NCBI RefSeq assembly: GCF_016432865.1 | Contig: NC_067401.1 | Coordinates: forward strand, 190,030,001 to 190,094,000 | Source: Antechinus flavipes | Taxonomy: Eukaryota | DNA: 64,000 nt | Direction of reading: 5' to 3' | Shown: positions 5,384 through 63,469 of the stretch, piece by piece | Layout of the letters: each line of letters begins with the position of its first letter | How positions within the stretch are numbered: position 1 is the stretch's first letter | Position numbers and translations under genes: made by a program | The notes under the pieces: model-generated | What the model saw: the letters and a program-made list of their open reading frames with translations, nothing else | Databases searched by the model: none | Told to the model about the DNA's origin: nothing

Positions 5384-5923
5384 TGTTATGCCACAGTTTT
5401 CTTTAACTGTCCTGACTCAGTTTCCCTGTCTCAGTTACCTTAACTGTTCTGTCTCTGACCCAGTAAAACTAAGGATTATTCGCTCTCGGGTTATGAATTA
5501 GCAAGATAAAAGAGAGATCTCCTGACTCTTTTAGGGATTTACAATATCCCTTAAAATATTCCAAGATTAACCCATGATATCTTTACTTCTTTGTCTCTGG
5601 AATTTTTAGGTTTTATGGCTTCCCCTCCCTGATAAAAAAACTTTCCCTCCCTTTCTCTTCTTTGTCTCCAAAAAGGTATTTAAGAAGTTGGGGTTCCTTC
5701 ATTCATTGCTGGAGAATGGCGTCTGGCAGCTGTATGCTGGACGCTGGATTCTTTGGGTCCTCCAGCCCTGGGACCAATATGGATTCCTTGGTCCCAGTAT
5801 ACTTATCTCTGTCTGACTGGATAATCTGAGATGAGAGTCCTGTCCAGTCAATCTTACTCTCCCATTAATAAAATATTAAAAACTCTCTAATCTCTCTCCT
5901 GCCTCAGTTTCTCTGACATTACA
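5384..5923 (+). mobile_element. LTR, family A copy 1
   Basis: TGTTATG...ATTACA termini, TATA-like GTATTTAAGA and AATAAA near the 3' end; near-identical to the reverse-oriented copy at 7509-8045. No TSD is visible, and it is followed by AT-TGGAGG. Confidence 0.9.
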
Positions 5924-6033
5924 ATTGGAGGACAAAAGGCCTTGGTAAAAGTAAGGGAAAGCTCCAGTAGGGCTGATCTTCATCCCTGCTCACTTTTACT
6001 TTCATTTTTCAGGGCAAAAGGAGACATATAACA

Positions 6034-7170
6034 ATGGAAGAGCAAATAGTTAAAGGACTGAAAGATGAAGGGAAAGATCTTAAATTTTTACAGTTAATCA
6101 TGTTAAAATAGTGAGTAAGGGCTAAGAAAAATAAGTTAAGAGCATTTCTTCAGGATGTTTACAACAATGCCTCTGGTTCCCCAGTGGTCCCCAAATCACT
6201 ATCAGTGAATGGGAAGTCTCCAGAGAAATTTTATACAAAGCATGCAAAGAAAAAGGTCCTCAGGCAATCTCTGCTGATACCCTTGTTGAGGTGTGAGAAA
6301 TGAGGATTGAGAGATCCCCTGACAGCAATGGGATCCCCTGGCTGGTTGCACAGGCTTTGCAAAAAAAATTCGCAAACCCCAATTACACTAAGAAAATAGC
6401 TTTCTTAGCGGGCCAGTTCCTGTTAGGATTTTTGCAAAGATGAATTTACACTGAGAAGCAACTCAGTGGGCATTCCTAATTAGGAATTAGCAGAGATGGA
6501 TTGACAGGCCTTCCTTTAAATCGGGTTTGTTTTGGCCTGGAGCTGGGGGACCTTTCCATAGAGGGTCGTGCCCCTGGCCAAGATCTCCAATCGAATAAGA
6601 GATTACTATCTGGGAGTTTTCCCTATGAACAGAAGGGTGGGGTCCCTCCCAGAGGCCTGGAGGGTTTGAGACTCAGCACCACCCTTCCCCCAAAGATTAA
6701 AGAGGCCTTTCCAATCCTTCCTCCCCAAGATTAAAGGGGACACAGTTTACATCATCCTCTCTTTGTATAATATTGTAAAAATTTGCTTATTAAAATCAGA
6801 AGTAGAAGGTAAGAATAGAACTTTGAAAGTCATTCTTGATAAGCAAAAGGGTGGGGGGGAGAATCCCCCCAAGGACAGACTTACTAAAGCACTATAAACC
6901 ATTAATTACCTCACCTTGAATAACATGTCCCATACCCCAGCTGACTTAATTTTTTCTTTACTACATCATTCTTCCTCAAACAAAGAGGAACAGAAAAGGT
7001 TAAGGGGCCAGCTCTGCAGCCTGATCCTTCCCACGATATGTGATGTGCAAGGATGTCAATGGGCGGTGGAAGGGCCCTGATAAGATAATAATTCGGGGTT
7101 GAGGTTTTCTTTTTATTTCCATAGATGAAGGAGACACATGGATCCCAGAAAGATGTAGTTGCCCTATCCA
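6034..7170 (+). mobile_element. Highly deleted betaretrovirus-like internal remnant (gag matrix plus integrase C-terminus)
   Basis: Matrix-like M-EQIVKG..VRAKKNKLRAFLQDV..CLWFPSG..EW at 6034-6260. Integrase VEGKNRTLKVILDKQKGGG, RLTKAL*TINYL and YVMCKDVNGRWKGPD..GFLFIS..WIPER at 6802-7160. All with stops and frameshifts. Confidence 0.8.
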
Positions 7171-7381
7171 AATTCATCCAGAGCATGAAGATAAAAGAAA
7201 AGACTTGCCTATGGGGAATCGAGCAGCATGGCTCCAGCAAATGGCCCTAGTGGTAGCACAACTTAAATTGGGAGAAGGAAAAACCAAGACCTTCTGGAGA
7301 ATTATACAAAGCCCTCCTTGGGTGAGAATTTGGATGGGGAGAATACATTCCTGAAATTCTATTGCATGGTAATGGATCTGA

Positions 7382-8305
7382 TGTAATAGGATTCTTTGGT
7401 CCCCTGATTTTTAGGGGCCTGAGTCAGGAAACCCTCAATCTTCTGGCTTGAAGTCTGTCTTAGGAAACTCTGGATTTCTGACCACTCCTTAGCCAAGATA
7501 CCTTCTAGTGTAATGCCGGAGAAACTGAGGCAGGAGAGAGATTAGAGAGTTTTTAATATTTTATTAATGGGAGAATAAGATTGACTGGACAGGACTCTCG
7601 TCTCAGATTATCCAGTCAGACAGAGATAAGTATACTAGGACCAAGGAATCCATATTGGTCCCAGGGCTGGAGGACCCAAAGAATCCAGCGCCCAGCATAC
7701 AGCTGCCAGATGCCATTCTCCAGCAATGAATGAAGGAACCCCAACTTCTTAAATACCTTTTTGGAGACAAAGAAGAGAAAGGGAGGGAAAGTTTTTTTTA
7801 TCAGGGAGGGGAAGCCATAAAAATTCCAGAGACAAAGAAGTAAAGATATCATGGGTTAATCTTGGAATATTCTAAAGGAATATTGTAAATCCCATAAAAG
7901 AATCAGGAGATCTACTCTTTTATCTTGCTAATTTATAACCCAAGAGCGAATAATCCTTAGTTTTACTAGGTCAGAGACAGAACAGTTAAGGAAACTGAGA
8001 CAGGGAAACTGAGTCAGGACAGTTAAAGAAAACTGTGGCATAACACTAGCCTCAGAAAACTCCTATGCTAATCAAATTTCAGAAACCACCCTTAATTCAT
8101 CTGTAGATTAATCCTTAGTCTCAGATCATAGAATCAACTTGTACTCTTTAGTCTTAAGCTATAGAAGACTAGATAAAGCTGTTCTCTGACTAGCCCATTG
8201 AGAATTCTCAGTGTCAATAAACCCTTTTTTGCCAACTTAACTTGGAGACTGGGACTGTAAATTCTTTCACAATACCTGTGACAGCGACCTGGGAAACCCC
8301 AAACA
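7382..8305 (+). mobile_element. LTR, family B, interrupted by LTR A2
   Basis: Shares GGTCCCCTGATTTTAGGGG, GCCTCAG(A/G)AAACTCC and the AATAAAC..GCAAATTCTTT..GTGAC..ACCCCAAAC 3' block with 15570-16064. The two halves rejoin across the CTAG duplication. Confidence 0.75.
7509..8045 (-). mobile_element. Solo LTR, family A copy 2, 4-bp TSD CTAG
   Basis: Reverse complement of 5384-5923; CTAG at 7505-7508 and at 8046-8049. Confidence 0.93.
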
Positions 8306-12025: not shown

Positions 12026-12393
12026 AATATCTATAAAAATGTAGTTATTTCTAGGTTTCTGAGGTGGCATATGTGGGGATATCCAGGGTCTCAGACAGTG
12101 CATTAGTGATGTAATATAGCATTTGAGGTCCCCCAATTTTGGGAGGGGTGCCATTACTGGATCTGTATCCCAAGGAACTCATAAAGGACAGAATAGGATC
12201 CACATGTGCAAAAATGTTTGTAGCAGCTCTTTTTAGGGTGGCAAAGAAGGAAAAGGAGAGGATGCCCATCAACTGGGGAATGGCTGAATAAGCTGTGGTA
12301 TGGAAGATAATGGAATATTATTGTTCTATAAAAAATGATGAACAAGCTGATTATAGAAAGGCCTGGAAAGATTTACATGAACTGATGCTGAGC

Positions 12394-15140
12394 TGACTTC
12401 ATGACTTTCAACAGTTGGTGGGAACTTTACAGTGGCTGAGGGCCACACCTCTGGTCCCCCCTTCTTTATGCACCCTTTTATGATATTTTGAAAGGCCCTT
12501 CTGCCCTGACATCACCACGGTTGTGGTCTGCGGAGGCCCGTGCAGCACTACAATCTGATCCCTTGCTGTGCACTTGTCCTGCCTCTAGAATTGGTCCTTT
12601 GGGGCCCTTGATGCTGCCGGCATTTGTTGTTAAGCCCTTTTCTCTGCATGGCACATGGTGAGCCCTCTGCAGAGAGGCTGTCCCCTACCAGGCCTTCACG
12701 GGCTCTGACCAGTGAGACTGAAGGACGCGGTTCCTTCCTGTGGCAATGTTGCCAGTAGGCCGGACTTATCTCGGGGCCACCCCCTCAATTGGCCCTTGGT
12801 AGAGCAGCACAGCAGGCGCTTGCCATTGCCCAGGAGAACTTAATGGGGGCAGTTCTGTCCGGCTTTGTCCCTTAGCGCCTTTGCCTACTTCTCGGCCACT
12901 TAGACAATTGTACAAAAGACTAAGAGGAAGTATTGCCCCTGGACCTCTTTCCTCAGAGCCAGTGCCAGGCCCTGATGTTTTTACTGATGCTACCAAAGAT
13001 CACAGGGCAGACACTCAGGAGACATATGTCCTTGACACCCCCTATGATTCCACACAGAAAAATGAGTTATAAGCCATCAGACACGCCATGCAACGGCATA
13101 AAGAGGCTATTTGTGTCCTCCCGGACAGTCTTTATGTCTGCCAAGCCATCCGGCAGCTACCACACGCGGATATGGATGACAGGCCCTCCACCATCACTGG
13201 TCTCCTTCAGGCTCAAGAAGCTTTCAACAGCAGAGCCGCGCCCCTTTTTATCAGGCGTGTTAGTCTCAGACGGACGGCCCGGCCTGTATTTGAGGGCAGT
13301 GAGGTGGCTGATTCCCTCCTTTACCCCGTGTGTGGCCTGTACTCGGTTGCCCCCGCCCATAAGGCACATGCTTCGTGTCACTTATCTGCCTGCAATGGGC
13401 GGCTGTATGGCGTCTCTAAAGCAGAAGCTGTGGCCATCGTTCGCCGCTGCACTACTTGTGCTCCTTTTCCTCCTGCTCCTAGAAATACTGCAACAAATCC
13501 TAGCGGTGAGTCGCCCAACGCCCTCTGGCAAATGGATGTGGCTCATGGTAAAGGCAGAGCATCCACGTAACCCTGGATACACCCCCCCAATTCCTCATGG
13601 TTCACTCCCACCAGGAGAAGTACTCAGGCACCGACCAGCCATCTTTATCACTGCTTCTCCATTGCAGAGTCCCACGTGCACTTAGGACAGATAATGGATC
13701 ACTTATGCATCCTCGCCTTTAGGTCCTTTTGCACTGAATCTGGCATTGCCCATCCCACTGGCATCCCCTATAAGCCTATGGGCCAAGCCATTGTTGAACA
13801 GGCTAATCGTACTCTCAAGAGGCTCCTGTCTGAGCAGGAAAAAGGCGTGTGGGGGTTTACAGGCCCTCCACCGACTCACGCCGGCCCGCTTAGAAGCGGT
13901 GATATATACGGAGAATTACTTACAGTTTTCACACTCCTTGGACCTCACCCCAGAGATGCACTTCTGGCACACGCTTCTGCCTAACTAACTAACTAGCTAA
14001 CTTCTAGCTAACAGACTGGCCGACAAAGACAAGAGCCCTCTCTCCACGGTGATGTGGAAGGGCTTAGATGGCATCTGGAAGGGCATCTGGGTCAGGATTG
14101 GGGCCCCGGGTATGCTCTTGTCATTCCGGATGCAGACCCAACAGCAGAGGAGAGGATCCCAACCAGGAACATCCGGGACCTGGGGAACCAAGAAGAGAAG
14201 GACCGGACAACGACGACGTCACCGCCGCCGGCGGCCCAGAAGGATGGGCCGGATGTCAGAGCCCTGCAGATGCTCCTGGCAGCCGCGTCCCTCCTGACCG
14301 TGACACCAGAGACAGCAGACACAGCTCCAGTGCCGCAGCTGGATTGGTCTGTGCAATACCTACAGACTGATAAATGGACAATGGCGACTCATATGGTGGC
14401 CTGGGGAGGGGCTTCCTCCTGTTTTCCACTTATAGACAATGACTAAGTTAGTGGATGAAAAACCAACAGGCCCACCGGCCAAAGCTACCGAGGCAGGGCT
14501 GCGGGACAGGACTTTGCTTGTATGCATCCTCCTCTGTGCCTTTCTTTACTAAAAGGCGTGCACAGTTGAAAGCACAGACTTATGACATCCTCCCTCCTTG
14601 AACATGACTTTCTTGAATGGATTAAACACTATGTTATCCATGCTTGGTTGTGGCCCCGTTGGGCCTAGTTCTTACTGTTTTATTTTGTTTGCCTTTGTTC
14701 TGTTACAGACACTGTAATCTCATGGATCAGGCGAGCTATTGCCGATGCTAAAGCTAGCTGCATGTGGTGAGTGGTCCCGCTTTACAAGAGCAGGGAATTG
14801 TAAGGGTCGGAGGAGGAGGAGGAGTCACAGACGGTGCAACAGAAGTACGCGGGCTTTGCCTGAGAGCCCTGGAAGTGGGTTTGCTGCGTCCCAGCAGGGA
14901 CCCCTCATGGGCGGGAGCTCTGGTCGCTTTGAGATCCGCATCATCTGCGGGAGTGTTTCCTTCTCTGAGTGACCCTATGTAAGCTGTGGGGACCAGGAAG
15001 TTGGCCCTTTCCCCCCCGGAGCTCTGTTGGGAGTAGTAACTAAGAGTGTGCAGGAGGTCAGAGGGTAGTATGTGGACACGTGAACAAAGATCCTGAGCTT
15101 GCATACAACTGCTCTCGAGTGCTCTGTCATGTAGCTACCA
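12394..15140 (+). mobile_element. 5'-truncated betaretrovirus-like (ERV2) provirus remnant: RT thumb/connection, RNase H, integrase, internally deleted env, 3' LTR
   Basis: Across frameshifts: LHDFQQLVGTLQWLR and PFYDILKGPSALTSPR (RT); VFTDATK..STQKNEL (RNase H); H..C..CTTC and NALWQMDV, GIAHPTGIPYKPMGQAIVEQANRTLK, WKG..W, WGPGYALV..ERIPTRNIR (integrase); an env leader and a TM-like FLEWIKHY..GLVLTVLFCLPLF; purine tract 14786-14798; LTR starting TGTAAGGG at 14799. Confidence 0.92.
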
Positions 15141-15331
15141 GGGGTCCTCAAACTTTTTAAATAGGGGGCAAGTTCACTGTCCCTCAGATTGTTGGAGGGC
15201 CGGACTATAATAAAAAACAAAACTTTTGTTTTGTGGGCCTTTAAATAAAGAAACTTCCTAGCCCTAGGTGAGGGGGATAAACGTCCTTAGCTGCCGCATC
15301 TGGCCTGTGGGCCGTAGTTTAAGGACCCCTG
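15139..15331 (-). mobile_element. hAT/Charlie non-autonomous MITE, OposCharlie1 (OC1)-like, 193 bp
   Basis: Terminal inverted repeats CAGGGGTCCTCAAAC ... GTTTAAGGACCCCTG (14/15 match). The right flank GTCTAAAC fits the Charlie NTCTAGAN target preference. The OC1 assignment is from memory of the family termini. Confidence 0.85.
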
Positions 15332-16162
15332 GTCTAAACTATCATTCTTACGAAATAATGGCCAGCGATCTCTGAAGACCTCAGAAGGAGGTAAGCTTGG
15401 TAAAATTGGTTTAAGCACTGCAAAAGACAGTGACCAGAGATTTCCCTGAGGGCCTGGGAATTAGGAGAGACTGGCAATAGTGAATGCAGAGCGGGCATTC
15501 ACACTGAGCAAAACAAGCAGACCCAGGAGGAACACATTGTACACAATAACAGCAAGAATGTGAGATGGATATAACAATGATTTTGAGGTCCCCTGATTTT
15601 AGGGGGGCTTCTGTTCTAACAATAAGTCAGTAGTCCTAATCTTCTGACTTTGCAGTCTCCCTCTGGAAACTGATTCTGAGTAGATCACACCTCAGTCAGA
15701 TAGCTTCTGGCCTCAGGAAACTCCCACAAATGAACTGCTGAGACAATAGTGAATAGACCACTCCACTGTTCATTGCTGACTGTCAGATAGATAATCTGTT
15801 GGTCAGTGATAACCAAATTTGGGAGCCACTCCTCTGGGCCATAGAACTAGCATGTCAATGATAGAATGCTGGATAAGGGGGTCTCCTCTCTCTTAGCATG
15901 CTGCTGATTTCTTCTGGAACTCAGCTCACTTGCAACGGCATTACAATTATAATAAACTTTGCCCCTTGACTGGGAAATGGGTTCAAGCCTGCAAATTCTT
16001 TTGAGATACCCCATGACACCGGTCTGTGACCCCAAACTTTTGGAGTCCCTTCCTAACCTCCACATTAGGATGGTGGTCTGCAAGATTATATTGAGGAGTG
16101 CTACTGCCTACTGGGATCGGGTAAATGAAACTCAACCAAGGAGGTTATAGCTCAGCTTGGCT

Positions 16163-20868: not shown

Positions 20869-22723
20869 ATGGTCCTAGTCCTGGGACTTTTGCTGCTGCT
20901 CGCAGGGACTGGAGGGAACCTGGACGGTGAGTGGAGGTGGGGTGGGAAGTGAATGGGAAAGGGGAAGAGAAACAAGGACTGGGGTGGGGGGGGGGCAGAG
21001 GGGAGGTGATATGGGATCGGACCTTGAATCCTAGGAAAAATCCAAGAATGGGGGAGGAGAGAGGAAGGGATGCCTGGATTCTCCAGGAAGACGAGCTTTC
21101 AGAACAAAGGCTGGTGATAGAAGGTGGGACTCAGAATCCCCCCTTATCCCAACTCTCCGCAGTTCTTCTGGAAGGACGCCCTGGAGATCGGGTGAGTATT
21201 TCTTGCACTGGGATCTCTCAGGCGACCCGCTGGGTTTGGGCTCCTACCTACCCAGGCTGTATAGGCTTGTCTCCGGGTCGCCGCCCGGTGGTCTGGGCCT
21301 CCCCCCCAGCAAATCTCACCCGAGCTTCCACCTCGCGCTTTGCTGGTCGTCTGCGTGTGGTGAGCCCCAGTGGCATTCAGCAGCTGGAGCTGCTCCTCGC
21401 TAGAGGAGACTCGGGGACCTTCTTCTGTTTGGGAACTGGCGGCCGCCAGGGCAATGAGAGTCGGACCTGCCTCACAGTGCTGGGGGACAAGGCTGCTTGC
21501 AGAGCCTCCAGGCCCACCTCGGGTGAGTTGGGAAAGGCTGGCCATGCTCTGCAGTTGTTAGAACAGGCCGAACTTCTCCCATGGGGGTAATACTATTGTA
21601 TCTCCTGCGCTTTGCACAGGGTCGGGCACCTAATAATTTGTGTAATGAATGGATGGAGATGGAAGTGGTCCTGCTGTGTGTTGGTTGAGTTCCTTGTAAA
21701 GAGGACTCTAAGTGCTCCCTTCTGACTCTGCTCCCCTCTTTAGGATCCTCGTACCCTCTGTTCCTGTACCCTCTGCTGGGCATCGGGTTGGCTTTGGGGC
21801 TGACAGGGCTGGGGATGGCTTGGAGACTTCGTCAGTAAGTGCCAGGAAGCAGAAGATGGGGGATGGAAAGAAGGGGAAGGGGTAACTGGGATCGGAGATG
21901 AAGACATAAAAAACTGAGGAGCGGGGGTTACCCAGTGTGAGAGTGGAACTGATTTCTGGGTGGGTGTGGAGAAAAGGGAGGCATGAAAATCTGAGTGGCG
22001 TGCCAAAGGCTAATAAAGCCTGGCTGGAAGTGGGAGGAAGAGCTAAGGGGCCAGCTCTGACCAACCAGTGAGGCATTTATTAAGTGCCTACTGAGTGTTA
22101 GGCACAGAGAAGACTATGTGGTTGGAGGAAGTGACAGGCTGGATAGTAGGAGTCTTGGTTTTCTAATTTTGTGCAAGAAACTTAAAGAGATGGCTGGGGC
22201 TTCCGTTAGCTAAAGATAAGAGAGTACAAATTTGGTCAGAGCCCCTAATTTCCCTCTCTAACCCATTCTAGGAAACTCCCTTCCGGGCTAGTCAGAACCA
22301 ACCCAGCACGTGGTGAGAATAGCTCCTCTCCCCAGCTCCATTCTGTGACTGGACATGTGCCCTCTTCCCATCCCTCAGCTCTGCACCCGTTCCCCAAAAC
22401 AAAAGATCCATCTATGGACACTGAGATCCAGAGTCGATGGAAAAAAGAGACTCGGGAAACAGAGAACTTGGAGGATGAAAAGGTAAGAACTGGAGGGAGG
22501 AGGGAGCTGGAGAAAAAAAGGGAATGCATGGAAACGGTCTATTGCCTGAGTCCCCAGGGATACAATAGTCCTGGACTACATGGTGGATCCCTATTCTGCA
22601 TCCTGTCTTCTTTTCCCATTTTTCCAGAGCCTTCTCTACGCTGATCTGGAGCACATTCCTCTCAGAAATCCTAAAAACACCATCCCCAAGGACACCGGCA
22701 CCATCTATGCTATAGTGGTTTGA
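20869..22723 (+). CDS. MPIG6B: Megakaryocyte and platelet inhibitory receptor G6b-B, 6 coding exons, 249 aa
   Basis: Exons 20869-20926, 21163-21522, 21744-21834, 22272-22312, 22379-22482, 22628-22723; all GT-AG, 750 nt in frame. Signal peptide MVLVLGLLLLLAG; IgV domain LEGRPGDRVSISC..WVWAP..GDSGTFFC; transmembrane exon YPLFLYPLLGIGLALGL; ITIM LLYADL and ITSM TIYAIV at the C-terminus, as in human G6b-B. Confidence 0.95.
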
Positions 22724-32480: not shown

Positions 32481-34829
32481 AGAAGTAGGGAGGACTCCTG
32501 GATCCTGGAAATGGAGAGGAAGGGTAATCCAGCTCCCAGAGAAAGTCCTGATTAGGGGAAGGGGAGAATAGGACTAGTTATCTGGAGCTCTTTCAATCTT
32601 CTAGTCTCCCTTAGACTCCTTCCTTTTTGTCTTATTTCCAATGATTGTTGACTCCTGTTTTTCCTCTACTCCATACATGCAACCTGACACCTTGAATTAA
32701 GGAGCCTTGAGAACCTGGGTAGAAGTATTTTAGGGGGCGAAAAAAGACCTTCTTTCCAGCCCCATCCAAAGGGGAAGATCCCCTCAAAACTCCCATCCTC
32801 TCTCTCCAGCCCTTCTCTGAAGCTCATTCTTTGTTGACTGTTTAGGGAGAAAGTGATGGAGTTGGGGGAGGTATATAATTGCTTGAGTTATAAAAATGTA
32901 CCTGAACCCTGAGGTTTACTCTACTGGTTCCACACTAAATCAAACCAAAAGTTAGACAGATGAGGTGACAAAACTTAATAGTGAAGAACTTAAATTACTT
33001 TCCATTACCACACTACTGAGATACTCGGGGAAGAGGTGGGAAGGTGATGGTTAAGTTTTCATTGTTCAGTATTTCACAGTATTTCCACAGAACCAGTCTC
33101 CCAGCTACCATCCCTAGATCTTGAACGTCTCTTCTCTCTCTACTTTCCTAGTATTAATCCTGTTATTCCGTATTCCTTCACTAATCAGTGCCTTTCCTTC
33201 CGAAACAGAGAAGCTCACTCCAGGGAGAAAGAAAAGGATTAGAAGAAGCAGATGAAATTTCATGGACAAGGAGAAATGAGGACGTAGTAGGAAAAAAAAC
33301 CTAACAGTTGGTGGTTTCCTCTTTGGTTTAAAGACGTTTCTCTCTACCTAGATAGCACTAATAGCCTTCACCAACTAGAAAGTGTCCCTGGTTTGGAATG
33401 TTCTAGAGGCACAGGAACAACCACACTGTTTTTAGAGTGTGTTTTAGGCTGTTTATGGATGATTCCCAAAGCTCAAACTTCTTTCCCACGAAGAAGGTGG
33501 AAGTAGTTGTTGTTTACATTTTATTTGGCTTTAAATGTGACCCTAGTTAGGGACAATAAGGGAGTGAGTGGCAAAAGAATGGATTTTGTACTAAAATAGA
33601 TACTATTGTACCTGTATTGTACTAAATTGTACTTCCTATTGCAGCTTCTTCCATCTCCCTCTCCCCATACTAGCCTCTCAACTAGTAAAGCAGCTTTAGC
33701 TGTCTTTATTATCAATAACTGTTTTTAGCCTGCAACCCTGTGCTACTAAACTTCTCCCCAATTGTTAGGGTACTGCCACCTTTTCCTTAGGGCATCCATC
33801 AAAGTTCCATGGATTTGATAGGGGGTTTCATCTCTGAATTAGGCCATCAGAGACAAATCCCATTCTCTACCTTTCTGGACACATTTTGTCTCTTGTTCCC
33901 ACTTCCTTTTTTCATTTTTTTCCTCTATCTCCCTCTATCTCTGTCTATCCATTTCTCTCCTCTCTGTTTCTCACACACACACACACACACACATATACAC
34001 AGACACATCCTCCTTGAGCACATATTCAAAAAAATTTTCTTCCCATTCTTCCCTTAATCTTCTCTCAGTTTCTATTCCTTTGCCTTTCCTTACCTTTCTA
34101 TAAATCTGCTCTAGTTTCTGTAAACCAGTCCACAATCTATTCTCACCCTGATTTGAGTTAATCTGCTACAGTGTGGCCCTCTGCCCATCCCCCCATTTGA
34201 CACTCCCTAACTCTAGTATCCTCCTCCCATGTATTTCCACATTCCACTTCCACATTCTTATTATTGCTCCATAACTCACCCAAGTCTCCCCACTCCTACC
34301 TCTGTTCCAACCACTAGTCTTTTAATTGTGGTTACCCAAATCCTTACCCTCTCCCCAATTCCCATCCCTCCTGTAGGGTTCATTTCTGTTAACTACTTTT
34401 TTAAAATTAATTTTTATTAATATCTTTTATTTTTACATCATCAAAATTTCTCCTATTATCTCTCACCAACCCCTTTCCAGAAAGCTATCTCATATAACAT
34501 ATATTTTTGAAATAAAGAGAAAGAGACAAAAAATTCAGCAAAACTGATAATACATTGAAAAGATCTGAAAGCATGTTTATTTTTTGTACTTTTGCAACAT
34601 TCACTTTTGAGAATTTTTTTCCATTTATATTATTATAATCATTATATATATTGTTCCATCAAACTAGATTTACTTTACTCTTCATCAGATCATCCAGTCT
34701 TTTGACTATCCACCTGTTGACATAACAAAAAAGAGGAAGGGGACTTTGGGAGGTACATAACCAGGCAGATATTTAACCAGGAGCTTTCCAAAAAGTACTA
34801 TGTATAATCTGCATTATGAACATTTTCTC

Positions 34830-35138
34830 CACCAAGAAGAAGACTTCTCTTAAGTTTTCATAGCCAACAATATAATAAAGCATAAGTTTAAATCAATAAT
34901 TAAAAGACCAAATCAATAAAAATAAATTATTTATATTAATTGCAAATTTCTAAGTTGTAAATACTAATACTAAAAATTAACAGTCCACTAAGAAGAAGAC
35001 TTCTCTTAAGTCTTCATAGCCAACAATATAATAAAGCAGTAAGTTTAAATCAATAATTAAAAGACCAAATCAATAAAAATAATTTATATTAATTGCAAAT
35101 TTCTAAGTTGTAAATACTAATACTAAAAATTAACAGTC
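34830..35138. repeat. Tandem duplication, two ~155-bp AT-rich units
   Basis: Unit 1 is 34830-34985 and unit 2 is 34986-35138; they differ by a few substitutions and small indels. Confidence 0.95.
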
Positions 35139-43100: not shown

Positions 43101-46100
43101 ATATCGCTCAAGAATTTTCTGATGACCTCTGCCACATTGCCTGCCTCATTAACAAAGTGGTAAGGGAATAAAGAAAAAGAAGAGATGGGAGAACAGGGCA
43201 GAGGGATAAAACTGGATGGTGGTATAAGGGGAGAAATTAGCAAAGAGGGAGGAGCAGATTATTAAAGACAGGTTTGTGGGGACTGGAAAAGATGTAGGGT
43301 AAGGGGAAGAGATGAGAAATAGAGCAATAAAACTGGGAGTTGAAGAACAAAAGTGGAAATAGAATGGGATTGGAAGCAGGGAAGGATGGGCTACAGTATT
43401 ATTAGAGATTTATCTGGGAGAAGAGAGATAAAATCCAGAAGGCCCAAGACTATAGTGGGGAGCAGGGAGGAATATGAAGTAGATTTGGGACTATGGGTGA
43501 TAGGAACAATTTCTTCCCATCTAGGTGGACTTTGAGGGCAGCATTGCTGAAAATAGATTCACTGTCCGACCCAACATTGATCCAGATATTGATGAGAGTA
43601 AGTTTAAAGAGAGGGGCCCCATCTTCTTGAAACATAGATATGCTTCATCAAAAGGTATCTGTTATTACTGGAAACCTCCCTCTCTCCCCCTATGACTAAT
43701 ATCTGGAGAAGGGTGTAGGGAGGAAATATCAGTCCTTATTTTTGGAAGAGCAAAGATGTGCAGAGCTCAATAAGGTATATACAATTTAGATCAAAGTCCC
43801 TGTCCCATTGAAGTTTACAGCTCTGTCCTCATCTCAAGGAGAATATGTGAAAAGTACATCTGTATTATTCATTTATTACTTTTTTTAGAGAAACGGAGGC
43901 TGATGGGACTTCCCAGTTTCCTCACAGAGGTTGCCCGAAAAGAGCTGGAGACTCTGGATAGCCGGATTCCTTCATGCTGTGTTCTCTACATCCCTTTGGT
44001 GAGAGAAGAATTATGACATCTCCTTTACAACTCATCCTGATACTTTGGGGCAGTGTTGCACTGGTAAATGTTTGACAACTGGTTCTCCAAGTGGAAAAAA
44101 AAATACACTAACACACTGTTCAGTTTAATCTATATTATTGACATTTTTTCCATTACTTTCTTAAGTCTAGACAATCAACAAAGCAGTATAAGTCAAGTTC
44201 TGATTTTTAATATTTGCCAGTTTCTAGCTATAAATGTACATGCTAAAAATTTAATGTTAGCTTATGCTGTTTCAAGCTGACTCTAGCACAAGTCTGCTTT
44301 TAGGGGACAGAAGTCTTATTCTGGTGGAATATAGATGGACCAGAAACCTCTAGGGGAACTCAATGGATATTGAAAGGAACATTGGGGCCTTTTGGGGAAA
44401 AATGGAAGACAGTCCTTTGAGTTCTCCTGGGATAGTTAAGAAGGTCAAGCCTTAGAATAACTTTTAAATTTATTTTCCCTCATTCACCTCTCTAGATTGG
44501 CTTCCTTCTCTCTATTCCCCGCCTGCCCTTTATGGTAGATCGAAGTGACTTTGAGATTGTGGGTCTAGATTTCATGGTGAGAACCTGGTCCTGTGTGGGA
44601 TAGGGATGGTGGTGAATGAGATGAATTAGGGACCAGTGTGTGGGGTAGCAAAGATGAGGAATGAATTGAGTTAGTGACCAAGACAATTCTATCTCTCAGC
44701 CTCAACCCACAGTTTGATCTTTGTAAGCTTTAGAGCAAAGGGAAGAGAATGAGAATGGAAAGGAAGAAGGAGATGGGAGAGGGGAGAGAAGCCAAAAAAA
44801 AAAATCAAAAGTGCAAAAGAAGGGGACTCCCTATGGAGAAGGGTTGTGAGCACCACTATGGGTCCAATCCGTGTCTCCACAGTTTTTGTCTGACGAGAAG
44901 CTACATTATCGAAGTACCCGAACCAAGGAATTGGACTCTATCCTGGGGGACCTTCATTGTGAGATTAGAGGTAAGTGAAGGGGTGGGTGTTGGCCTAGAA
45001 AATCCTCCTCTTTTCTCTAACTGGATCCTCTCCATCAACTTTTCCTTATCATATCCTATTTTCACATTTGCCTTCTCTGTGTCCCTTGGTCTTCTTCCCT
45101 TTCCCCCCTTTTGGGCTCCCTGTTCCCTACCCAGATGGAGAGACACTACTCATGTACCAGCTGCAGTGCCAGGTGCTATCCAGGGGGGCAATGTTGAACC
45201 GCGTGATAGATCTTGCTTCCCGACTAGATGTCCTACTGGCTCTTGCTGGGGCTGCCCGGGACTATGGCTATTCACGACCCCAGTATTCCTCTAAAATTCC
45301 TGGGGTGAGAATACAAGATGGCAGGTCAGTACTAAATGTTGTGGGAATCAAAATGAGACCACAAGAATGAATGGGCATTATGGCTCTCACACCTTCCTGA
45401 ACATCTGGAAAAATCAAGAACAGGCAATATAATTAACATTTTTCAGGTTCTTTATATTTTTGTAAATATTCATCCACATTTGGGTATCTGCCTGCCAAGA
45501 CAAATCCAAGAACTATATGAACACAATTACAAAACACTTCTCACACAAATAATATCTGATGTAAACAATTGGAAAAATATCAATTATTCATGGTTAGGCT
45601 AAGCAGCAATCAAAACCATTTGGTACTGGTTAAGAAATAGTGGTGGATCAGTGGAATAGATTAGATACACATGACACAAATATCAAGACCTATAGCAATT
45701 TATTATTTGATAAAACCCAAATTCCAATTTCTGGAATAAGAACTCACTATTTGACAAAAATTGCTGGGAAAATGGAAAATAATGTGTCAGAAAATCAGTA
45801 TAGACCTATATCTCACACTCCATAACAAAATAAGATCAAAATAGATACATGATTTGAGCATAAAGAATGATACCATAAACAAATTAGGAGAACAAGGAAT
45901 AATTTACTATTAGATCTTTGGAGAAGGGAGGAATTTATGACCAAAGAACAACTAGAGAATATTATGAAAGGCAAAATGGGCAACTTTGATTACATTAAGC
46001 TAAAAAGATTTTGCACAAAAATTTCTCAATTCTCCTGACTTCAGGACTAGTGCAGATTGCACTGTCTAGCTGCCTCCACAATTAACCTTTCTCTGGCCAT

Positions 46101-48285
46101 TCCTAGACATCCACTGATGGAGTTGTGTTCCCATACCTTTGTACCAAACTCTGCTGAGAGTGGTGGAGACAGAGGAAGGATCAAAATCATCACAGGCCCC
46201 AACTCATCAGGAAAAAGCATCTACCTTAAACAGGTGGAGGGATTCCTTCTTTATGATCTATCACCACTTTCACCACCTGCCTGCTTTAGAGCTTTTCATT
46301 TCTATGCTTTGATCTGGCTCTGGTTCACTTTTTGTTGGTTTTCATTCCTTTCACTCAGTTCCTCCTGAGTCTTTAACTTCAGAGTGACATAGAGATATTA
46401 TTTCAGGGATCTTGGGGCTGGTGTTGGACACAAATTGTTCAGTTCCCCACACACAATCTTTAAAGTTTGTCCATTTTTTTCTTCCACAGTTCCCCGACTC
46501 CTTTAGATATCTTAGCCTGTTTCTGACTTCATCCCACAGATTCTGGTCTTTCTTCATTCCCCAACTCTTATCCTCACTACTTTTCTTTTCTCTTCTCTAT
46601 CTAGATAGGTCTGATTACCTTCATGGCTCTAGTAGGGAGCTTTGTGCCAGCAGGCAAGGCAGAAGTTGGAGCAGTAGATGCCATTTTCACTCGAATCCAC
46701 AATTTTGAGTCAGTCTCCCTTGGTCTCTCCACATTCATGATTGATCTAAACCAGGTCAGAAGGAGCAAAGGGAGCCAAAGGTGGCAAAGTGGATGGGAGT
46801 AATTTAGGGAACTTTCACCCTGAAAACCATTCAACATATGAAACATCCCCTCTTCTTGTCTGAGAAAAAGGGGTGAAAGTGTAGAGTCTGAGGAATGAAT
46901 GAAATTAATCTTCCCATTTCCATCTCTATTATCAGGTAGCAAAAGCTGTGAACAATGCCACTGAGAGGTCCCTGGTCCTCATTGATGAGTTTGGGAAGGG
47001 AACTAACACGGTAAGGCAAGAGTGACTGAGAACCAGGGAAGAAGAGGAGGAACTGGGAGGGGGCCGATGGAAAAAGAAGAAAAGCTACATGGAAATGAAA
47101 GGAAGGGTTCAAAGGAGAATAATGGAGGGAGAAGATAGGAACAGGCTCAAGGAACAGGGAAAGTATAGATCTGTATATGACCTGTAATCCTTATTCTATT
47201 CTCCTATATACCCTCCTCAGGTAGATGGACTGGCACTTTTAGCCTCTGTACTCAGACACTGGGTGTACCAAGGACCCAACTGCCCCCAGATCTTTGTTGC
47301 CACCAACTTTGTGAGCCTCATTCAGCTGCAGCCTCCTGGATCCCTTGTGGAGTATCTGGTGATGATATCAGTCTTACCTTTAAGATGAAAGCATCTTCTA
47401 AATCTAAAATTCAGAACCCCAGTTTGGTAGTTTTTTAATAACAATAATCTTCTCTTCTGATAAACTGAAAGCTAAGGGTGAGAATTATTGCTTCTATCAT
47501 CATTCTGGGAACTTCCCAAAGGCTCTTTTTTGTCTCTACAGTTTGAGGGCAGGAAATGTGTCACCTCTTTCCTCAGTCTCTCAAAGAAGCAACTCATCCC
47601 AGGATGTTCAGAAAAATAAAGTATGTGATAGATTTTTCATTTTTCTCTTCTACAAGACCATGGAGACCTGCAGGGATGGAAATGACCTCATCTTCTTATA
47701 TCAGGTCCGAGAAGGTATTGCAAATGCCAGTCATGCCTCTTACACAGCAGCCCAAGCTGGACTCCCAGCTAAACTCATTACTCGTGGATTAGAGGTAATA
47801 GAATATAGCATCTAGCTCACTAATTCATAGCCTTCTTTCCCCTTGAATCCTTAACTCTTTTCATGGATCCAGGTATCTAGTCTCTAAAATCTCTTAGCCT
47901 GTTTCTGACTTCTTCCCACAGATTCGGGTCTTTCTTCATTCCATAACTCTTATCCTATGTCTTGAAGCACATCTCTTGACCACCCACCCTATCTTGCTTC
48001 TTTTCCTTTTCCAGGTCTCAGAGTTGATCCAAAAAGGAAAACCTATTAAGCCTGATAAAGGACTTTTAAAGGACAATCAGATAGAAAAGTGAGCATCCAA
48101 TCCCAGCTTCTTTGTTCCTTCTCCTCTAGAAAACCAAAACATATTCTTTCCTCCAACACTCTCTCCACTTTAGTTGCCAGGCCTTGGTGGATAAGTTCCT
48201 GAAACTGGATTTAGAAGATCCCGAATTGGACTTGAGCAATTTCATGATTCAACAAGTTCTACCTACGGCTTCCTCTATTCTCTGA
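37307..48285 (+). CDS. MSH5: MutS homolog 5 (meiotic), 24 coding exons, 824 aa
   Basis: Exons 37307-37429, 37545-37668, 37959-38039, 38298-38360, 38577-38698, 38901-39010, 39406-39441, 39763-39845, 40494-40539, 41478-41616, 41736-41798, 43031-43159, 43525-43597, 43889-43998, 44496-44576, 44883-44970, 45135-45324, 46107-46233, 46605-46754, 46936-47010, 47221-47358, 47657-47794, 48015-48088, 48174-48285; 2475 nt, frame continuous. Walker A GPNSSGKS, Walker [10 protein letters not shown]-terminus [17 protein letters not shown] at 48402-48407. Confidence 0.97.
45478..46022 (+). mobile_element. L1 ORF2 internal fragment in an MSH5 intron
   Basis: [40 protein letters not shown] and IKLKRFCT motifs. 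Confidence 0.85.
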
Positions 48286-57600: not shown

Positions 57601-60600
57601 CTCATCTCCACCCCCCAATGCATGGATCTCATTAAGATGTTTCCAGAAAGCATCAGGGTCACTGGTCTTAAGGACAGGTCCAAATCCTGAAGAGAAGAAA
57701 AGGAGGGAGGATGAAGTGAGTGAAGAACAGTAATAGGCCCAATTCTACTCAAAAATTATTACAGTAATTTTTTATTCCCTAACCCAGAAGTCCTCTTTGT
57801 CTCTGTAATGAGGAGGAAACACAAACCAAAAAATGTTACTATTTTGAAATCATGTTAACGATAACACCTCCAAAATGTACAGTACTTTTCAAAGAACTTT
57901 CATATCTAATATCTCATTTAATTTTTGTATAGCAACCCCAGGAGGTAAGTCAGATATATATCATTATTTTCATTTTACAAATAACAAAAATGTGACTCAA
58001 GAGAATTAAGTAATTTGTCTTCTTGACAGAACTGGACTAGAACTCTTGGGGTTAGAGTAGAAAATAGCAATAGAATGAATGATTGCCACAACTACTTCTC
58101 AGAACTCTGTTGTTTCATGTTGAAATCTACCAACAGATTCCATTCCTGCTCCCAAAATGGAGGAAAATGGAAATTTCATTTAATCCTCTCCCCCAGCCCA
58201 TTCCCAAGTCCCTACTGGCTTTATACTTCCGAGGCACTCACCCTCCCAAGGATATGCTGCCATTTTGGAAAGAAAGGGAAGACCACTCCCTACTCTTGTA
58301 TTGCCAGAGAAAGGACTGCTGATTTAAAAGGGGAAAACATGGGAAGTGGAGCTATAACCCAGGATCTCTGATCCCTCTGCCCTGGTATCACTGTTACCAG
58401 GATCATGGAAAGGCACAAGAATGTAGTGGGTAGGCTCCATAGGACCACCACGATGTTGATCAATGATCTTCCGAGCCTGCATTTTGGCTGCGTGAATTTC
58501 TTCCCTCATACTGCCTGTAGTGTCCAGGACAAAACTCAGGCCTGAGGCTGGAGAGATTTGCAGGAACCTGGGGGGGTGAAGAACTCGAATGAAGGGCTTA
58601 GTTCTCTGATCCCCACCCATCTCACAGCTCTTACCTCTCACAGGAACTCGGATTGTAAATCCAATGCTGCCTCTCTGCCTCCCACCTCCTCTTTCCTGCT
58701 CACCTGGAAAATCCTGAATCCCCTAAACGGTCTCGGAGGAGATTTAGGGCTTGAATTGAGGCCTGAAAAGCAAGCTGGGCAGCTTGAGGATGCAAAGCAT
58801 GGTGTGGTGAGAACGTTGGAGATGTGCTGTCCTTGTTGATGCCCCCTCGGGGAATATCATGGCTGCTCTGGTCAAAATGGCCGCCATGGCTACATTTCCC
58901 TAAATTGAGGGAAAAGGTCCAAGAGACATAAGAGATGGGACATTAAAACCCTTTATTAACTGAGAAGAGAAAAAAGCTCCTTTCCCTATATTTAGTACCA
59001 AACTCCTTAGAGATCAAGAAACAAATTAGTAGCAACGCAGCCATTTTGTGAAGTTTAAACAAGAATGAGAAGATTGCCATAATTCTCACTAACCCTGAAG
59101 AATCCCCTTATCACCCTACCCTACCCTATCAAAATTCTCTTGTGAGCAATAGAAAGCTACCCCCAGATTTTGATTTTGCTGCCTGATTTTGAGAAGACAT
59201 TCGTTCCATTCATTATATTTCACTCACTATGCCAATTGTGCCACCTCTAATATGATCCTTCTTTTCACAGGAAGTGGCACCTTCCTGAGGAAGCTAATAA
59301 TGGGAAGTGAGTCTTTGGAGGAAATGGGGTCTCATCCTATGGCATACCTGGAGGTTTGGGAGGCTCTGCCCCAAAATAGCCAGAGGTAAGGAATATGGAG
59401 TCCAGCAAATTTCCAGGGCAGCTCAGCTCTTCACAGTCAGAGCACATCTGGTCCCCAACTGAGAAAAAAAGGATTGCCAAAGTAGGGAGAATGAGACAGT
59501 GAAGGGACAGAAAACAAAGAGCTCCCTGGGTCCCCAACATTTTAAATCCTTTCCTTATTTGTTTAGTCTCCTCTTTCCCACTTCCCAAGAAAAGGAAAAA
59601 GACTAACAGGAAGCACAACTGGTGCCTCTATACTCTTAATGGCAGGACAAGGAGTGTACTTGGGGATGGGCTACAAGGTAGGTTTCTTTTCTCCCTCTGT
59701 TCCTTCTTCACCCACTTCCAACAACCAAAAAGAAAAAACAGGTGATGTAGATGGGGGGCAAAACATGATGCCATGAAAGACTTGCCACTTTGGGCAGGTC
59801 AAGCCTTCTTTCTCTGAATGTCTCCATAATAAGGGTTTGACCTTGATCTGTCTTGAAAGTTTCTTCCAGTTCTCTTATTCTATGCAAGACCGCATTGGGA
59901 CACTTTTCCCTAGGAGTGTGAGTTAACCAAAGTGACTCTAGGGACTTCCTTCCCCAGGCTAGGTAGTATGGCTTGTACCCATACCCTGTGCCAAGTTCTT
60001 GAGCTTCCTTCCTGGCCACAGAAGATCAGGGTGGGGCTGCTGCTTTCCCAGCTCTACCCAGTTGCTGTGGCTGTAGAAATCCTGATGGTAGAAAACAGAA
60101 CAATCATAGCCCATTTCTTTCTCCTCCAATTTTAAACTCCATCCTTTCTTTCCCTCTCTCTACCATCCCCTCATGAGATTCACCGCTCCTGTTCACATGA
60201 GACTCATGGGCCAGTCTTCTACCAGTACCTTTCAATTTCCCAACACTTCTGATGACAAAACTCTTTTTTCTGTGTGTATGTATTTATTTTATTTTATTAT
60301 TTTTTAAATAACTTTTTATTGACAGAACCCATGCCAGAGTAATTTTTTACAACATTATTCCTTGCACTTGCTTCTGTTCCACTTTTTCCCTTCCCTCTCT
60401 CCACCCCCTCCCCCAGATGGCAAGCAGTCCTATACATATTAAATATGTGATGACAAAACTCTTATAGGAAGTACTATTATCTTAGAAGAGGGGACATAGA
60501 AAGGGGCCTCAAATCCCTCCCTCATGCTGACTTTCTTTTTATCCTTACTAACATCTAACATATTCTTTCTCTCCCTTCGTCTCCTACACCTGTAAAGTGT

Positions 60601-62480
60601 GTAGCATGGCTCCCAGGTGTTGGCGAGCCAAAGCGTATTCCAGGGCTCGAGCAGCACTGAGGGCTTCCTGAAGGCTCCCCAAAAGGCGGGCCCGACTCCC
60701 AACTAGCCGTTCTGCATCAAAGTGAAGCTCAGGGTTATGCTTGGTTGCTGAAAGGAAGTCCTGGGCTGCATTGGCACGAGCCACCTCACCAAGGGCTGCT
60801 CTGAAGTGGCGGGTTGGGGTCCCAAGCCCAAAGTAAGCACCAAAGAGGTCATCAGCCAGCAGGGTTCGGCCCTGAAAAAGGAGAAAAATATCTAAGGTTT
60901 AGAAATCTAGAAAGAATTCCACCGTTCACCACCAGATGGTGCAGGGAACACCCTAAAAAAATTTCTGTATTCTGCAGGGGAGCCAGGCAGGCAGAGGCCA
61001 TAGAACTAAATCATGCATTGAAAAGACTTTCCTCTGGAAATCAAGATTTCTCAAATTATCTTTAGTTTATTTGTCTTCCCTAGTATAACATAAATTCTTT
61101 GAAGGCAAACATTATTTTGTCTTGATGTAGTCAATCAGTCAGTAAACGTTTATTAAGCACCTACTATGTATCAAGCATTGGATGCTCACAATTTATTGGG
61201 GGAAGCACCATGCAAACAATATACCTTCAAGTAAATAATTAACCAAGGGAAGTCATTAAAATTAAGAGAGATTGGATGTGGTAGGAAAGAATTGGAACTG
61301 GAATGGCTGCCTATCAATTGGGAAATCGCTAAACAAATTGTGGTACATGAAGGTAATGGAATATTAATGTTCTATAAAAAATGATAAACAAGCTGATTAT
61401 AGAAAAGCCTGGAAAGCTTTATGTGAACTGATGCTGAGCAAAAAAAGCAAAACCAAGAATAAGTTGCACACAGTAATAGCAAGAATGTGCTATGATCAAT
61501 GATGAAAGACTTGGTTCTTCTCAATGGTTCAGTGATCCAAAGCGATCAAAAAAGACTTTGGACAGAAAATGGCCATCTACAGCCAGAAAAAGATCTAAAG
61601 AGACTGACTAAATCAACACGCTATGTTGACTTTTTTGTTTTTTTCTCTCCCATGGTTTTTCCCTTTTGCTCTGATTTTTCTCTCCCAACATGATTCATAA
61701 AGCAATGTGTATTAAAAACAAAGAAGCTTGCTACAATTAAAAAATAGAGAGATTGAGAAAGGCTTCCTATAGATTATTTTGTAGCTGGTACTTGAAGGAG
61801 GAGGGACAGATGAAGAGGAAAAAAGTTCCAGGCATAGGGAAACTATGAAAATGCTACTGAAAATGTTTAGAGTCTAAAAGTGGAGTGTTTTATACAAGGG
61901 ATAACAAGGAGGCCAGTGTCACTATATGTACTGGAATATGATTCCCCACCTCCAAACTTGATGCTCACAAGTTTATGACCAGATATTTAAAACTGGAAAT
62001 GGACCTTGGAGATCATCTCATGTGATTTGACTAAAGTCACATAGGTGGTAAGGAGGGAAAATTTGAATTCAGATCCTTTGACTCCAAATCCTATATCTTT
62101 GCCAATTGGTGGGATGCCTCCCTTCCCACTAAATAACTGTTTGTTGAACTGATGTCCTACCCTTAACAACCACAGCCCTGGAGGGATGAGGAGCTCTTAG
62201 GAACCTCAGGGGAATAATTAGCTCTTGAGAGAACTGGGAGCAACACATGGGGTCCTACCTGGAAGTCTTCTAGGTGGAGCGGCTTCCTGCCAGAGGGTGG
62301 CCGTTCCAGGAAGAGCTGTAAAGTAACATTAAGAACAGCTTCCTCTGTCAGGTCCTGATGGGTGATGGAACTGGGGGCAGCTACCAGGCTCCAGATATTG
62401 GGAAAGAAGCCAGATGCTGGGAAAAGCCATGTTATCAGCAGGAGTAGGGAGCCCAGGTAGGAGTGAGACGGAGGGCTCAT
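51668..62480 (-). CDS. VWA7: von Willebrand factor A domain containing 7 (G7c), 16 coding exons, 877 aa
   Basis: Exons 62259-62480, 60590-60871, 59985-60081, 59348-59458, 58704-58899, 58398-58567, 57574-57686, 57209-57325, 55163-55339, 54501-54633, 53994-54146, 53803-53895, 53387-53676, 52999-53138, 52039-52213, 51668-51832; 2634 nt in frame. [34 protein letters not shown]-type [20 protein letters not shown] likely non-coding first exon has its donor at about 62988. Confidence 0.96.
52396..52968 (+). mobile_element. 5'-truncated L1 3' end in a VWA7 intron, perfect 15-bp TSD
   Basis: AGAATTAGGTCTTAG at 52381-52395 and 52969-52983; same 3' UTR as positions 1-240 and 10518-11367. Confidence 0.95.
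54270..54410 (-). mobile_element. CORE-SINE in a VWA7 intron
   Basis: Reverse complement of the same SINE consensus with a T-rich tail. Confidence 0.9.
55600..56290 (-). mobile_element. L1 ORF2 end plus 3' UTR in a VWA7 intron
   Basis: Reverse complement of the L1 terminal motifs [24 protein letters not shown]. Confidence 0.9.
61290..61745 (+). mobile_element. Older L1 3' fragment in a VWA7 intron
   Basis: ELEWLP.IG..LNKLWYM..MEY motif and 3' UTR with A tail. Confidence 0.85.
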
Positions 62481-63469
62481 GGCTAAGACATGGACCTGGA
62501 GGAAGAGGAGAGGGGAGAGGGGAGAGGGGAGGACAAAGACACAGGAGCAAGGGTGTATGTCTGTGGAATACTGAATTAAGTGCCCAAATTTCTGAGGAGG
62601 ACAGATAGAATGGCATAATGAGGTGACACGCCTTCCTCTCTGGCCAACCCTGGATCTGTTTCTGTCTCCTAGGACACCTGCCTTCTCCACCCTCAGCCTC
62701 ACTTATCTTCCTTATTTGGACTCCTGTCTTCACCCAGACAACCAGTTATTAAAATACAAACTGAGTGGCTTTGGCAAACCTGCCAGGGAAAGGCTAAGGA
62801 CCTCTCTGCTTCTCAGTGACCCAGGCAATCAAGCTCTTTACTTCCAAGTAGCCAACAATCTGCTGGTCTGCCACCCCTATCCTCCCTCTCCCTTTTAGGT
62901 TTTTCCCCTCAAGTACCCAGGTATTTTCTTCTCACAGGGAACAGAAGTTTCCCCTTCAGTTTCTCCCCTCCCCTTCCCCGCATCTTACCTGGTCCCTGGA
63001 ATTTCCTCCAGGATAGGGTCGTTAGGCTAGGCAAGCAATGGTATCCTTGTCCCAGACTTTAGATCAGAGTTATATTTAACCCAGGGCAAGGTGTAAGTTG
63101 TGGGTGAGGCAAACTAGGGAGCAAAGACAGGACCTAGAGTGTTCCCAACTGCATAGCCCCCCAAATCCAAAGAAGCCCAAACAAAGGAACTATGTGTAGA
63201 ATGAGAGATATACATAGAGCTGCCCTTACTTGATCTATCCCACTGCATTGCAGAGATGAAATGTGCCAATGAAAGTGCATGAGTCAGGGGCTGGAGCCCA
63301 GCCAGGGCTAGACCAAGTTTTATCCTTTTTGCTCCCTTTCCCCACAGAGGGGACCCAAATTTCTAGTTCCTCAGCTCTGGGGTAGTACCTTGCCCCTAGT
63401 CCTCAGTATTCTCCAGGAACAAAAGCATTCAGTTCCCCTTGAGTTTCCCAGATATTAGACTTTCAACCT

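Follow-up and report, generated by a model that had tools for sequence, protein, structure and literature searches.

Retroviral integrases leave target repeats of 4-6 bp, and the repeat is 6 bp for both mouse mammary tumor virus (MMTV) and type 1 human T-cell leukemia virus (HTLV-1) (PMC9410886). In some HTLV-1 proviruses that lack the 5′ long terminal repeat (LTR), a 6-bp repeat adjoins an internal position of pol or env and also the 3′ LTR, and these have been read as integrations of an already defective complementary DNA (cDNA) (PMC6950816). One-ended aberrant integration usually produces much longer duplications or deletions (PMC5041404). Here, we describe a 3,110-bp block in the marsupial Antechinus flavipes that resembles such a provirus. 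The block lies in a window of 64,000 nt (the whole stretch of DNA analysed: contig NC_067401.1, positions 190,030,001 to 190,094,000, renumbered from 1), where it interrupts an L1 fragment. It consists of the 3′ part of a class II endogenous retrovirus (ERV), a hAT miniature inverted-repeat transposable element (MITE) of the OC1_Das-NA family, and a further 172 bp. The OC1_Das-NA family has been described in dasyurids (PMC3621081; PMC4408412), with a mean divergence of 5.4% and an age of about 17 million years (PMC3621081); its presence in the window points to a dasyuromorph marsupial.

An earlier, sequence-only reading of the stretch had offered three origins for the block: a mobilised, MITE-carrying unit with a cryptic internal end in pol; a provirus whose LTR contains the MITE within U5 and whose 5′ part was deleted; or a templated copy of another locus. 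We consider it probable, on balance, that the block is a one-off provirus, deprived of its 5′ half when it integrated or around that time, and that the MITE later entered the end of its LTR. A MITE with repair filler at the LTR's own terminus is a fourth option, beyond the three proposed.

The insertion and its target

The insertion is real and cleanly bounded. The block begins with TG (12394), ends with CA (15503) and is flanked by two copies of CTGAGC, all as first reported (Table 1). The repeat is exactly 6 bp, with different bases just outside it. When the block is removed, the two halves of the L1 are collinear with all four L1 copies found elsewhere in the window. No copy among these four contains the hexamer twice. 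The insertion does split an L1. For example, a copy of the same subfamily at 61349-61489 has a single CTGAGC followed by the same A run; the left half of the target is identical to it at 84/91 positions and the right half in 40 of 50 paired columns, with a 3-nt gap. The empty state of the target is thus that of paralogous L1 copies in the window rather than that of the orthologous site. The L1 does resume after the block, as claimed, but only for about 55 nt, the L1 itself being a fragment cut on both sides. An assembly mis-join is unlikely, because the L1 resumes in register after an exact repeat.

Given the composition of the block, two ends fixed at these positions would read TG and CA by chance in 0.079 x 0.072 = 0.57% of cases. 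Taking these ends and the 6-bp repeat as the signature of a betaretroviral integrase was reasonable, and integrase is the probable agent. The target itself partly fits the marginal MMTV consensus, with ATN before the site and C at +5 (PMC9410886). Since one-ended integrations usually leave far longer lesions, both ends of the block were probably joined together. The ratio of observed to expected CpG is 0.35-0.54 across the block (the value for the 172-bp segment is based on 3 CpGs), compared to 0 for the L1 and 0.19 for the window as a whole, which sets the block apart as a separate layer and probably a younger one. No second copy of the block was found within the 64-kb window.

Table 1. Features of the block, its target and the nearby genes (window coordinates)
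Feature	Position	Strand	Basis
L1 fragment (end of ORF2, open reading frame 2), left half of target	12148..12393	+	sequence comparison in window
Left copy of 6-bp target repeat CTGAGC	12388..12393	+	
Left junction: TG + one base, not the conserved Thr codon	12394..12396	+	comparison with relatives
Class II ERV pol remnant: reverse transcriptase (RT) thumb, connection, RNase H, integrase	12397..14200	+	Pfam, PDB, relatives
env-like remnant, ~550 nt: signal-peptide-like start, membrane-anchor-like end, middle missing	14240..14798	+	layout only
Degenerate polypurine tract	14785..14798	+	sequence
LTR (U3-R-start of U5), starts TG	14799..15138	+	boundaries inferred from motifs
OC1_Das-NA hAT MITE, full length	15139..15331	-	by eye vs published consensus
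Extra 172-bp segment, origin not assigned, ends CA	15332..15503	.	starts with OC1 target-like 8-mer
Right copy of 6-bp target repeat CTGAGC	15504..15509	+	
L1 fragment, right half of target	15510..15562	+	E 3e-6 to 61434-61489
G6B exons	20931-21590		domain matches
MutS-like exons	44999-46368		domain matches
VWA7 exons	58324-62702		domain matches

The provirus

The beta-like RT thumb, RNase H and integrase identify the viral part of the block as class II, in agreement with the earlier assignment of its pol to ERV2. Pfam matches to RVT_thumb (E 0.0019), RNase_H (E 0.00015) and rve (E 0.058) are all below Pfam's curated cut-offs, and the best PDB matches are retroviral integrases (E 2e-15). We take the top PDB matches to be MMTV integrase and HERV-K polymerase. 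Depending on the reference chosen, pol carries 6-9 frameshifts and 2-4 stops. It is 36-43% identical to its best relatives, which are wombat and unnamed class II proteins; the named relatives come from wombat, bilby and platypus. When the RNase H-integrase ORF was used to look for homologues, 10 relatives came up, all of them at about 40% BLASTP identity or less, and no homologue was found when this ORF was searched against longer proteins. The ERV (12397-15138) is rich in G+C (54%) and in CpG. With its closest proteins only about 40% identical, it may belong to an undescribed marsupial class II lineage.

Nothing of the provirus was detected on the 5′ side. There is no remnant of a 5′ LTR (108 of 300 shuffles score equally well), as had been noted, and the N-terminus of the RT of a relative has no significant match upstream of the block. 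The block had been said to start in the middle of the RT thumb. It does start in the thumb, with the match to relatives beginning at 12397, near the start of the domain; the first three bases, 12394-12396, do not encode the Thr that is conserved there. Among 95 proteins examined, 14 match the L[NH]D thumb pattern, and the residue before the motif is Thr in all 14, while none has L, M or V one residue further back. The wombat protein P0090, which escaped the pattern, also has Thr at this position. The left TG may therefore be part of 2-3 foreign nucleotides (an LTR stub or filler), or it may be native, with a small indel directly following; given how densely breaks occur in this pol, we estimate the chance of the latter at a few percent.

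Downstream of pol, the env described earlier is present only as a putative remnant. Its layout is like that of MEBrv5, an assignment based on comparing translations by eye, and neither Pfam nor an atlas search with the env-like start gave a match. The LTR contains a TATA-like word at 14976 and a poly(A)-signal-like AACAAA at 15083-15088, and it is the only LTR in the block. A primer-binding site (PBS) pattern derived from MEBrv1 and 3, with other tRNA primers outside its reach, has no match at 15100-15510 and has 10 matches in the whole window, compared to 7.7 expected.

The MITE and the right end

The OC1-like MITE of the sequence-only reading is indeed OC1_Das-NA, inserted on the minus strand without an intact target duplication. 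It is 193 nt long, compared to 192 nt for the consensus, and has intact terminal inverted repeats and about 13 differences (about 7%, by eye). Its flanks, GTAGCTAC and GTCTAAAC, mismatch at four of eight positions and so do not form the 8-bp target duplication of a hAT element. This many mismatches would be expected in 0.6-0.9% of copies at 5.4-6% divergence, and in 4.8% at 10%. The 8-mer to the right of the MITE fits the OC1 target motif, which we read by eye from published empty sites and which occurs at 143 of 63,993 window positions (0.22%). The 8-mer to the left fits only the looser nTnnnnAn (7.8% of positions).

Damaged target repeats are also seen at the published loci in the devil. By eye, a perfect 8-bp repeat is present at none of the three devil OC1_Das-NA loci in supplements 5, 6 and 7 of PMC3621081, and two of the three have small deletions beside the element. 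At one locus, about 52 extra nt follow the MITE; they are missing from both empty sites, begin with a target-like word and end with the same two bases as the left flank (PMC3621081; by eye). A word search of the main text of PMC3621081 finds neither “target site” nor “TSD”. In the block described here, the two sides likewise share a 2-nt suffix, and the layout is that of the devil locus. This suggests a MITE plus foreign flank just inside the LTR terminus. One-sided gap repair off another MITE copy would leave such a MITE with a foreign flank.

The extra 172 bp are either U5 or repair filler. Filler at the LTR terminus is slightly preferred over a long U5 that ends at 15503 and whose left MITE repeat was altered. 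When the MITE and extra segment are read across, the LTR start has a terminal inverted repeat of 4 bp, compared to 3 bp at the outer end; the three bases needed are found at 30 of 3,107 block positions. The segment is 59% purine and contains a diverged direct repeat (15353-15405 and 15425-15479) with a period of 72 nt. None of 1,000 shuffles reproduces this repeat, an optimistic figure given that the split was chosen after the repeat was seen. The segment has no match elsewhere in the window and no Pfam match in the two of six frames scanned.

Two side observations concern the same segment. First, the 72-nt-period repeat at 15353-15479 resembles an LTR enhancer repeat. Second, read on the minus strand, the segment starts with TGT at 15503, so that another LTR may begin there.

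Two further sources of the segment were considered, namely a one-LTR circle in permuted form and a piece of the block's own LTR in inverted orientation. Both were rejected because the segment is unlike the LTR and internal region of its own ERV on both strands (144, 212, 174 and 77 of 300 shuffles score equally well).

How did the block arise?

The reading that we favour begins with a class II (beta-like) ERV that would have integrated once into the L1 fragment, with everything 5′ of the RT thumb lost. The loss may date from the cDNA stage, ahead of integration, or from the repair of the junction that integration left. Integrase would have joined a CA at each end, leaving the 6-bp repeat, and the CA joined on the left would have come from an internal pol site or from a 2-3 nt stub of the 5′ LTR. 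A provirus with a single LTR would have had no way to collapse to a solo LTR or to give rise to further copies. The OC1 MITE would have landed later, in the end of the LTR. The extra piece would then be foreign flank, acquired as a second MITE copy served to repair one end of the MITE, with only the last bases of the LTR remaining beyond it; alternatively, and slightly less favoured, it would be the remainder of a long U5 in which the target repeat of the MITE has changed. In keeping with an HTLV-1-like defective provirus of type 2, the block has no 5′ LTR, has its left end in pol, and has a repeat of integrase length that is single in the paralogous L1 copies. The weights given to this reading and to its rivals are our own estimates.

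Several points weigh against this reading. On the left, a native internal TG requires a small indel within the first few bases (L, M or V in none of the 14 relatives), and a 2-nt LTR stub requires a breakpoint exactly at the LTR end. The left junction also forms a 5-nt tandem with the target, which would occur at 70 of 3,080 possible starts (2.3%) and at 49 of 245 TG starts (20%), and its 6-mer reappears 8 nt downstream, as happens at 31 of 3,080 starts (1.0%); slippage repair could produce both. On the right, an 8-bp hairpin (15480-15502) ends 1 nt from the junction, an arrangement found at 85 of 63,960 window positions (0.13%) and compatible with repair. The poly(A) signal lies about 51 nt from the LTR end if the inner end is used and about 214 nt if the outer end is used, compared to 66, 87 and 154 nt in MEBrv3, 5 and 1 (published records, by eye), such that neither candidate end fits. 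The landing of a MITE within the last 9 nt of an LTR is a coincidence in itself. Lastly, papers on HTLV-1 stress a post-integration origin of defective proviruses (PMC2731725; PMC13427564), a preference that also favours a late deletion.

Among the alternatives, repair-mediated duplication fares best; we regard it as unlikely, though it deserves serious consideration. A staggered break in the L1 would have been filled with a 3.1-kb copy of another locus, comprising the 3′ half of a provirus, the MITE and its flank, with TG and CA arising by chance or by slippage. This is the templated copy of the sequence-only reading, and the idea has a precedent: in human, 7 of 12 tail-less inter-chromosomal duplications have a target repeat of 4-21 nt, filler being present in six of the seven, and the length of distant duplications extends to 3,424 bp (PMC2671141). 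It would account for the foreign bases at the left junction, the junction tandem and hairpin, and the non-LTR character of the extra segment. On the other hand, it requires the right CA, the left TG and a repeat of integrase length all at once, and it still needs a separate cause for the MITE adjoining the LTR end. The median length of distant duplications is only 204 bp, and no donor was found in the window, whereas 824 of 1,136 such duplications have a donor within 5 kb (PMC2671141).

A late deletion, in which a complete and normally integrated provirus was long afterwards stripped of the stretch between base 3 of its 5′ LTR and the RT thumb, seems improbable. It is helped by the TG, which looks foreign to pol, and by an area that is prone to deletion: the L1 is truncated at either side, the env-like part has an internal deletion, and a class II ERV at about 5940-7360 has collapsed. 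It must nonetheless have ended 2-3 nt inside an element of several kilobases while sparing the target repeat, a placement that we put at roughly 1 in 1,000. The earlier proposal of a deletion combined with a long LTR is partly upheld at its left end, where the TG looks foreign to pol. At its right end, it is strained by the mismatched MITE flanks and by the purine-rich segment with its 72-nt-period repeat.

It is quite doubtful that the block belongs to a mobile family, either an ERV subfamily with the MITE in the U5 of a 705-bp LTR or a composite that reuses both odd ends. In its favour, both ends resemble integrase ends, and CpG is raised over the whole block. Moreover, U5 is copied from the donor's 5′ LTR, such that a MITE within U5 would be inherited. 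Against this, the block carries a single LTR without a nearby PBS match, the 64 kb contain no further copy, and the MITE flanks are mismatched. Given the single LTR, the missing PBS match and the lack of a second copy in the window, the block could not be copied again as a unit by the retroviral cycle. It also differs from a non-autonomous LTR vehicle such as TRIM or an ETn-like element, which has two LTRs and a PBS. The mobilised MITE vehicle of the sequence-only reading is therefore not supported. The use of an internal pol end, the left half of that proposal, has a precedent in HTLV-1 and so is not new (PMC6950816). Equally doubtful is the more elaborate scenario in which an undescribed dasyurid class II ERV subfamily spread, through retroviral copying, an LTR-borne OC1 MITE that had been acquired horizontally, with some copies integrated via an internal pol end, and the block is one such copy. 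As a new mobile element, the block is unsupported.

Least probable is that L1 made a retrocopy, with internal priming and 5′ truncation, of an ERV read-through transcript. Such an origin would suit the sense orientation, the 5′ truncation, the additional bases at the 5′ junction and the weak poly(A) signal but not the 3′ end of the block, which has no poly(A) tail, or the 6-bp repeat, which lies to the left of the A run rather than on it, the wrong geometry for priming by the L1 endonuclease. L1 mobilisation of ERV RNA has been reported in the devil, but those cases have tails and are 188-335 nt long (PMC4408412).

Genomic setting

The window is part of the major histocompatibility complex class III region, as indicated by matches to the G6B domain (E 3.5e-43) and VWA7_N (E 1.3e-20) and a weak match to MutS_V. 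Genes of the region presumably include DDAH2, CLIC1 and MSH5. Upstream of the G6B gene is a 13-kb nest of LTRs and L1 pieces, within which the block sits. An Rfam scan of the window found no family.

The nest contains other LTR material. Two ERV1-like LTR starts, at 12107-12147 and about 15560-16064, are 75% alike over 40 nt (E 0.006), and the block-bearing L1 fragment lies between them; TTAG is found at 12103-12106 and 16065-16068. This pair may be what is left of an ERV1 provirus that was gutted, or else a tail-less L1 piece may have split a solo LTR. Further upstream, LTRs at 5384-5923 and 7509-8045 are about 97% alike and in opposite orientations. The second has CTAG at both sides and the first has no matching repeat, and by eye their 3′ end agrees with the published MEGrv1 LTR end. 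Between them is the collapsed class II ERV (about 5940-7360), with integrase C-terminal matches at 6802-7153 and no Pfam match in the one frame scanned. Elsewhere in the window, 34828-35138 is a 153-bp tandem duplication whose copies are 95% identical.

Significance

What are the implications of such a locus? First, if the favoured reading is correct, the block is a germline fossil of a process known from HTLV-1 tumours, namely the integration of a provirus that lacks its 5′ half, with a normal target repeat. Among the literature listings, which cover titles and the starts of abstracts outside subscription journals, no such 5′-less integration with a normal repeat is described for an ERV, and no marsupial ERV with a MITE in its LTR is listed. 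Second, should loci of this kind be common, part of the ERVs called “truncated” would have been so from birth and would be exempt from collapse to a solo LTR; they could be counted in any marsupial assembly. Third, the damaged OC1 target repeats, seen here and at three of three published loci, are a testable side result. As a single locus, the block has no evident function.

Comparison with known systems

Repair-mediated duplications (Pace et al. 2009; PMC2671141) resemble the block in that a transposon is interrupted by foreign DNA, with a short repeat, filler and no poly(A). They differ in being usually short, with a donor within 5 kb, and their definition does not include TG...CA ends or a 6-bp repeat alongside these.

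The MITE resembles other OC1_Das-NA copies in its length, its intact terminal repeats and its divergence of about 7%, compared to a family mean of 5.4%. It lacks matching 8-bp flanks, and none of the three published devil loci has perfect ones (by eye). The sets used for comparing the ERV and OC1 are parts of the supplements of PMC11334065 and PMC3621081, beyond which a closer ERV or more OC1 flanks may lie.

Marsupial class II ERVs (MEBrv1-5, and pol of wombat, bilby and platypus) share the layout and motifs of pol with the block, and MEBrv5 shares the layout from env to the polypurine tract (by eye). The LTR and pol of the block are unlike the published representatives of MEBrv1, 3 and 5 (by eye); for MEBrv2 and 4, the comparison covers record ends and motif matches. 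Five 7-nt words gave no informative match in the MEBrv supplement, a weak search given that its text is set in 10-nt blocks.

The closest parallel is the type 2 defective provirus of HTLV-1, which likewise has a single 3′ LTR, a left end in pol and a short repeat at both ends (PMC6950816). The block differs in being a germline class II ERV fossil rather than a somatic deltaretrovirus clone; its first 2-3 bases may not be native pol, and its right end carries a MITE and 172 extra bp. Most likely, then, the block adds a germline case to a class of defective proviruses that is already known, with a transposon event following later.

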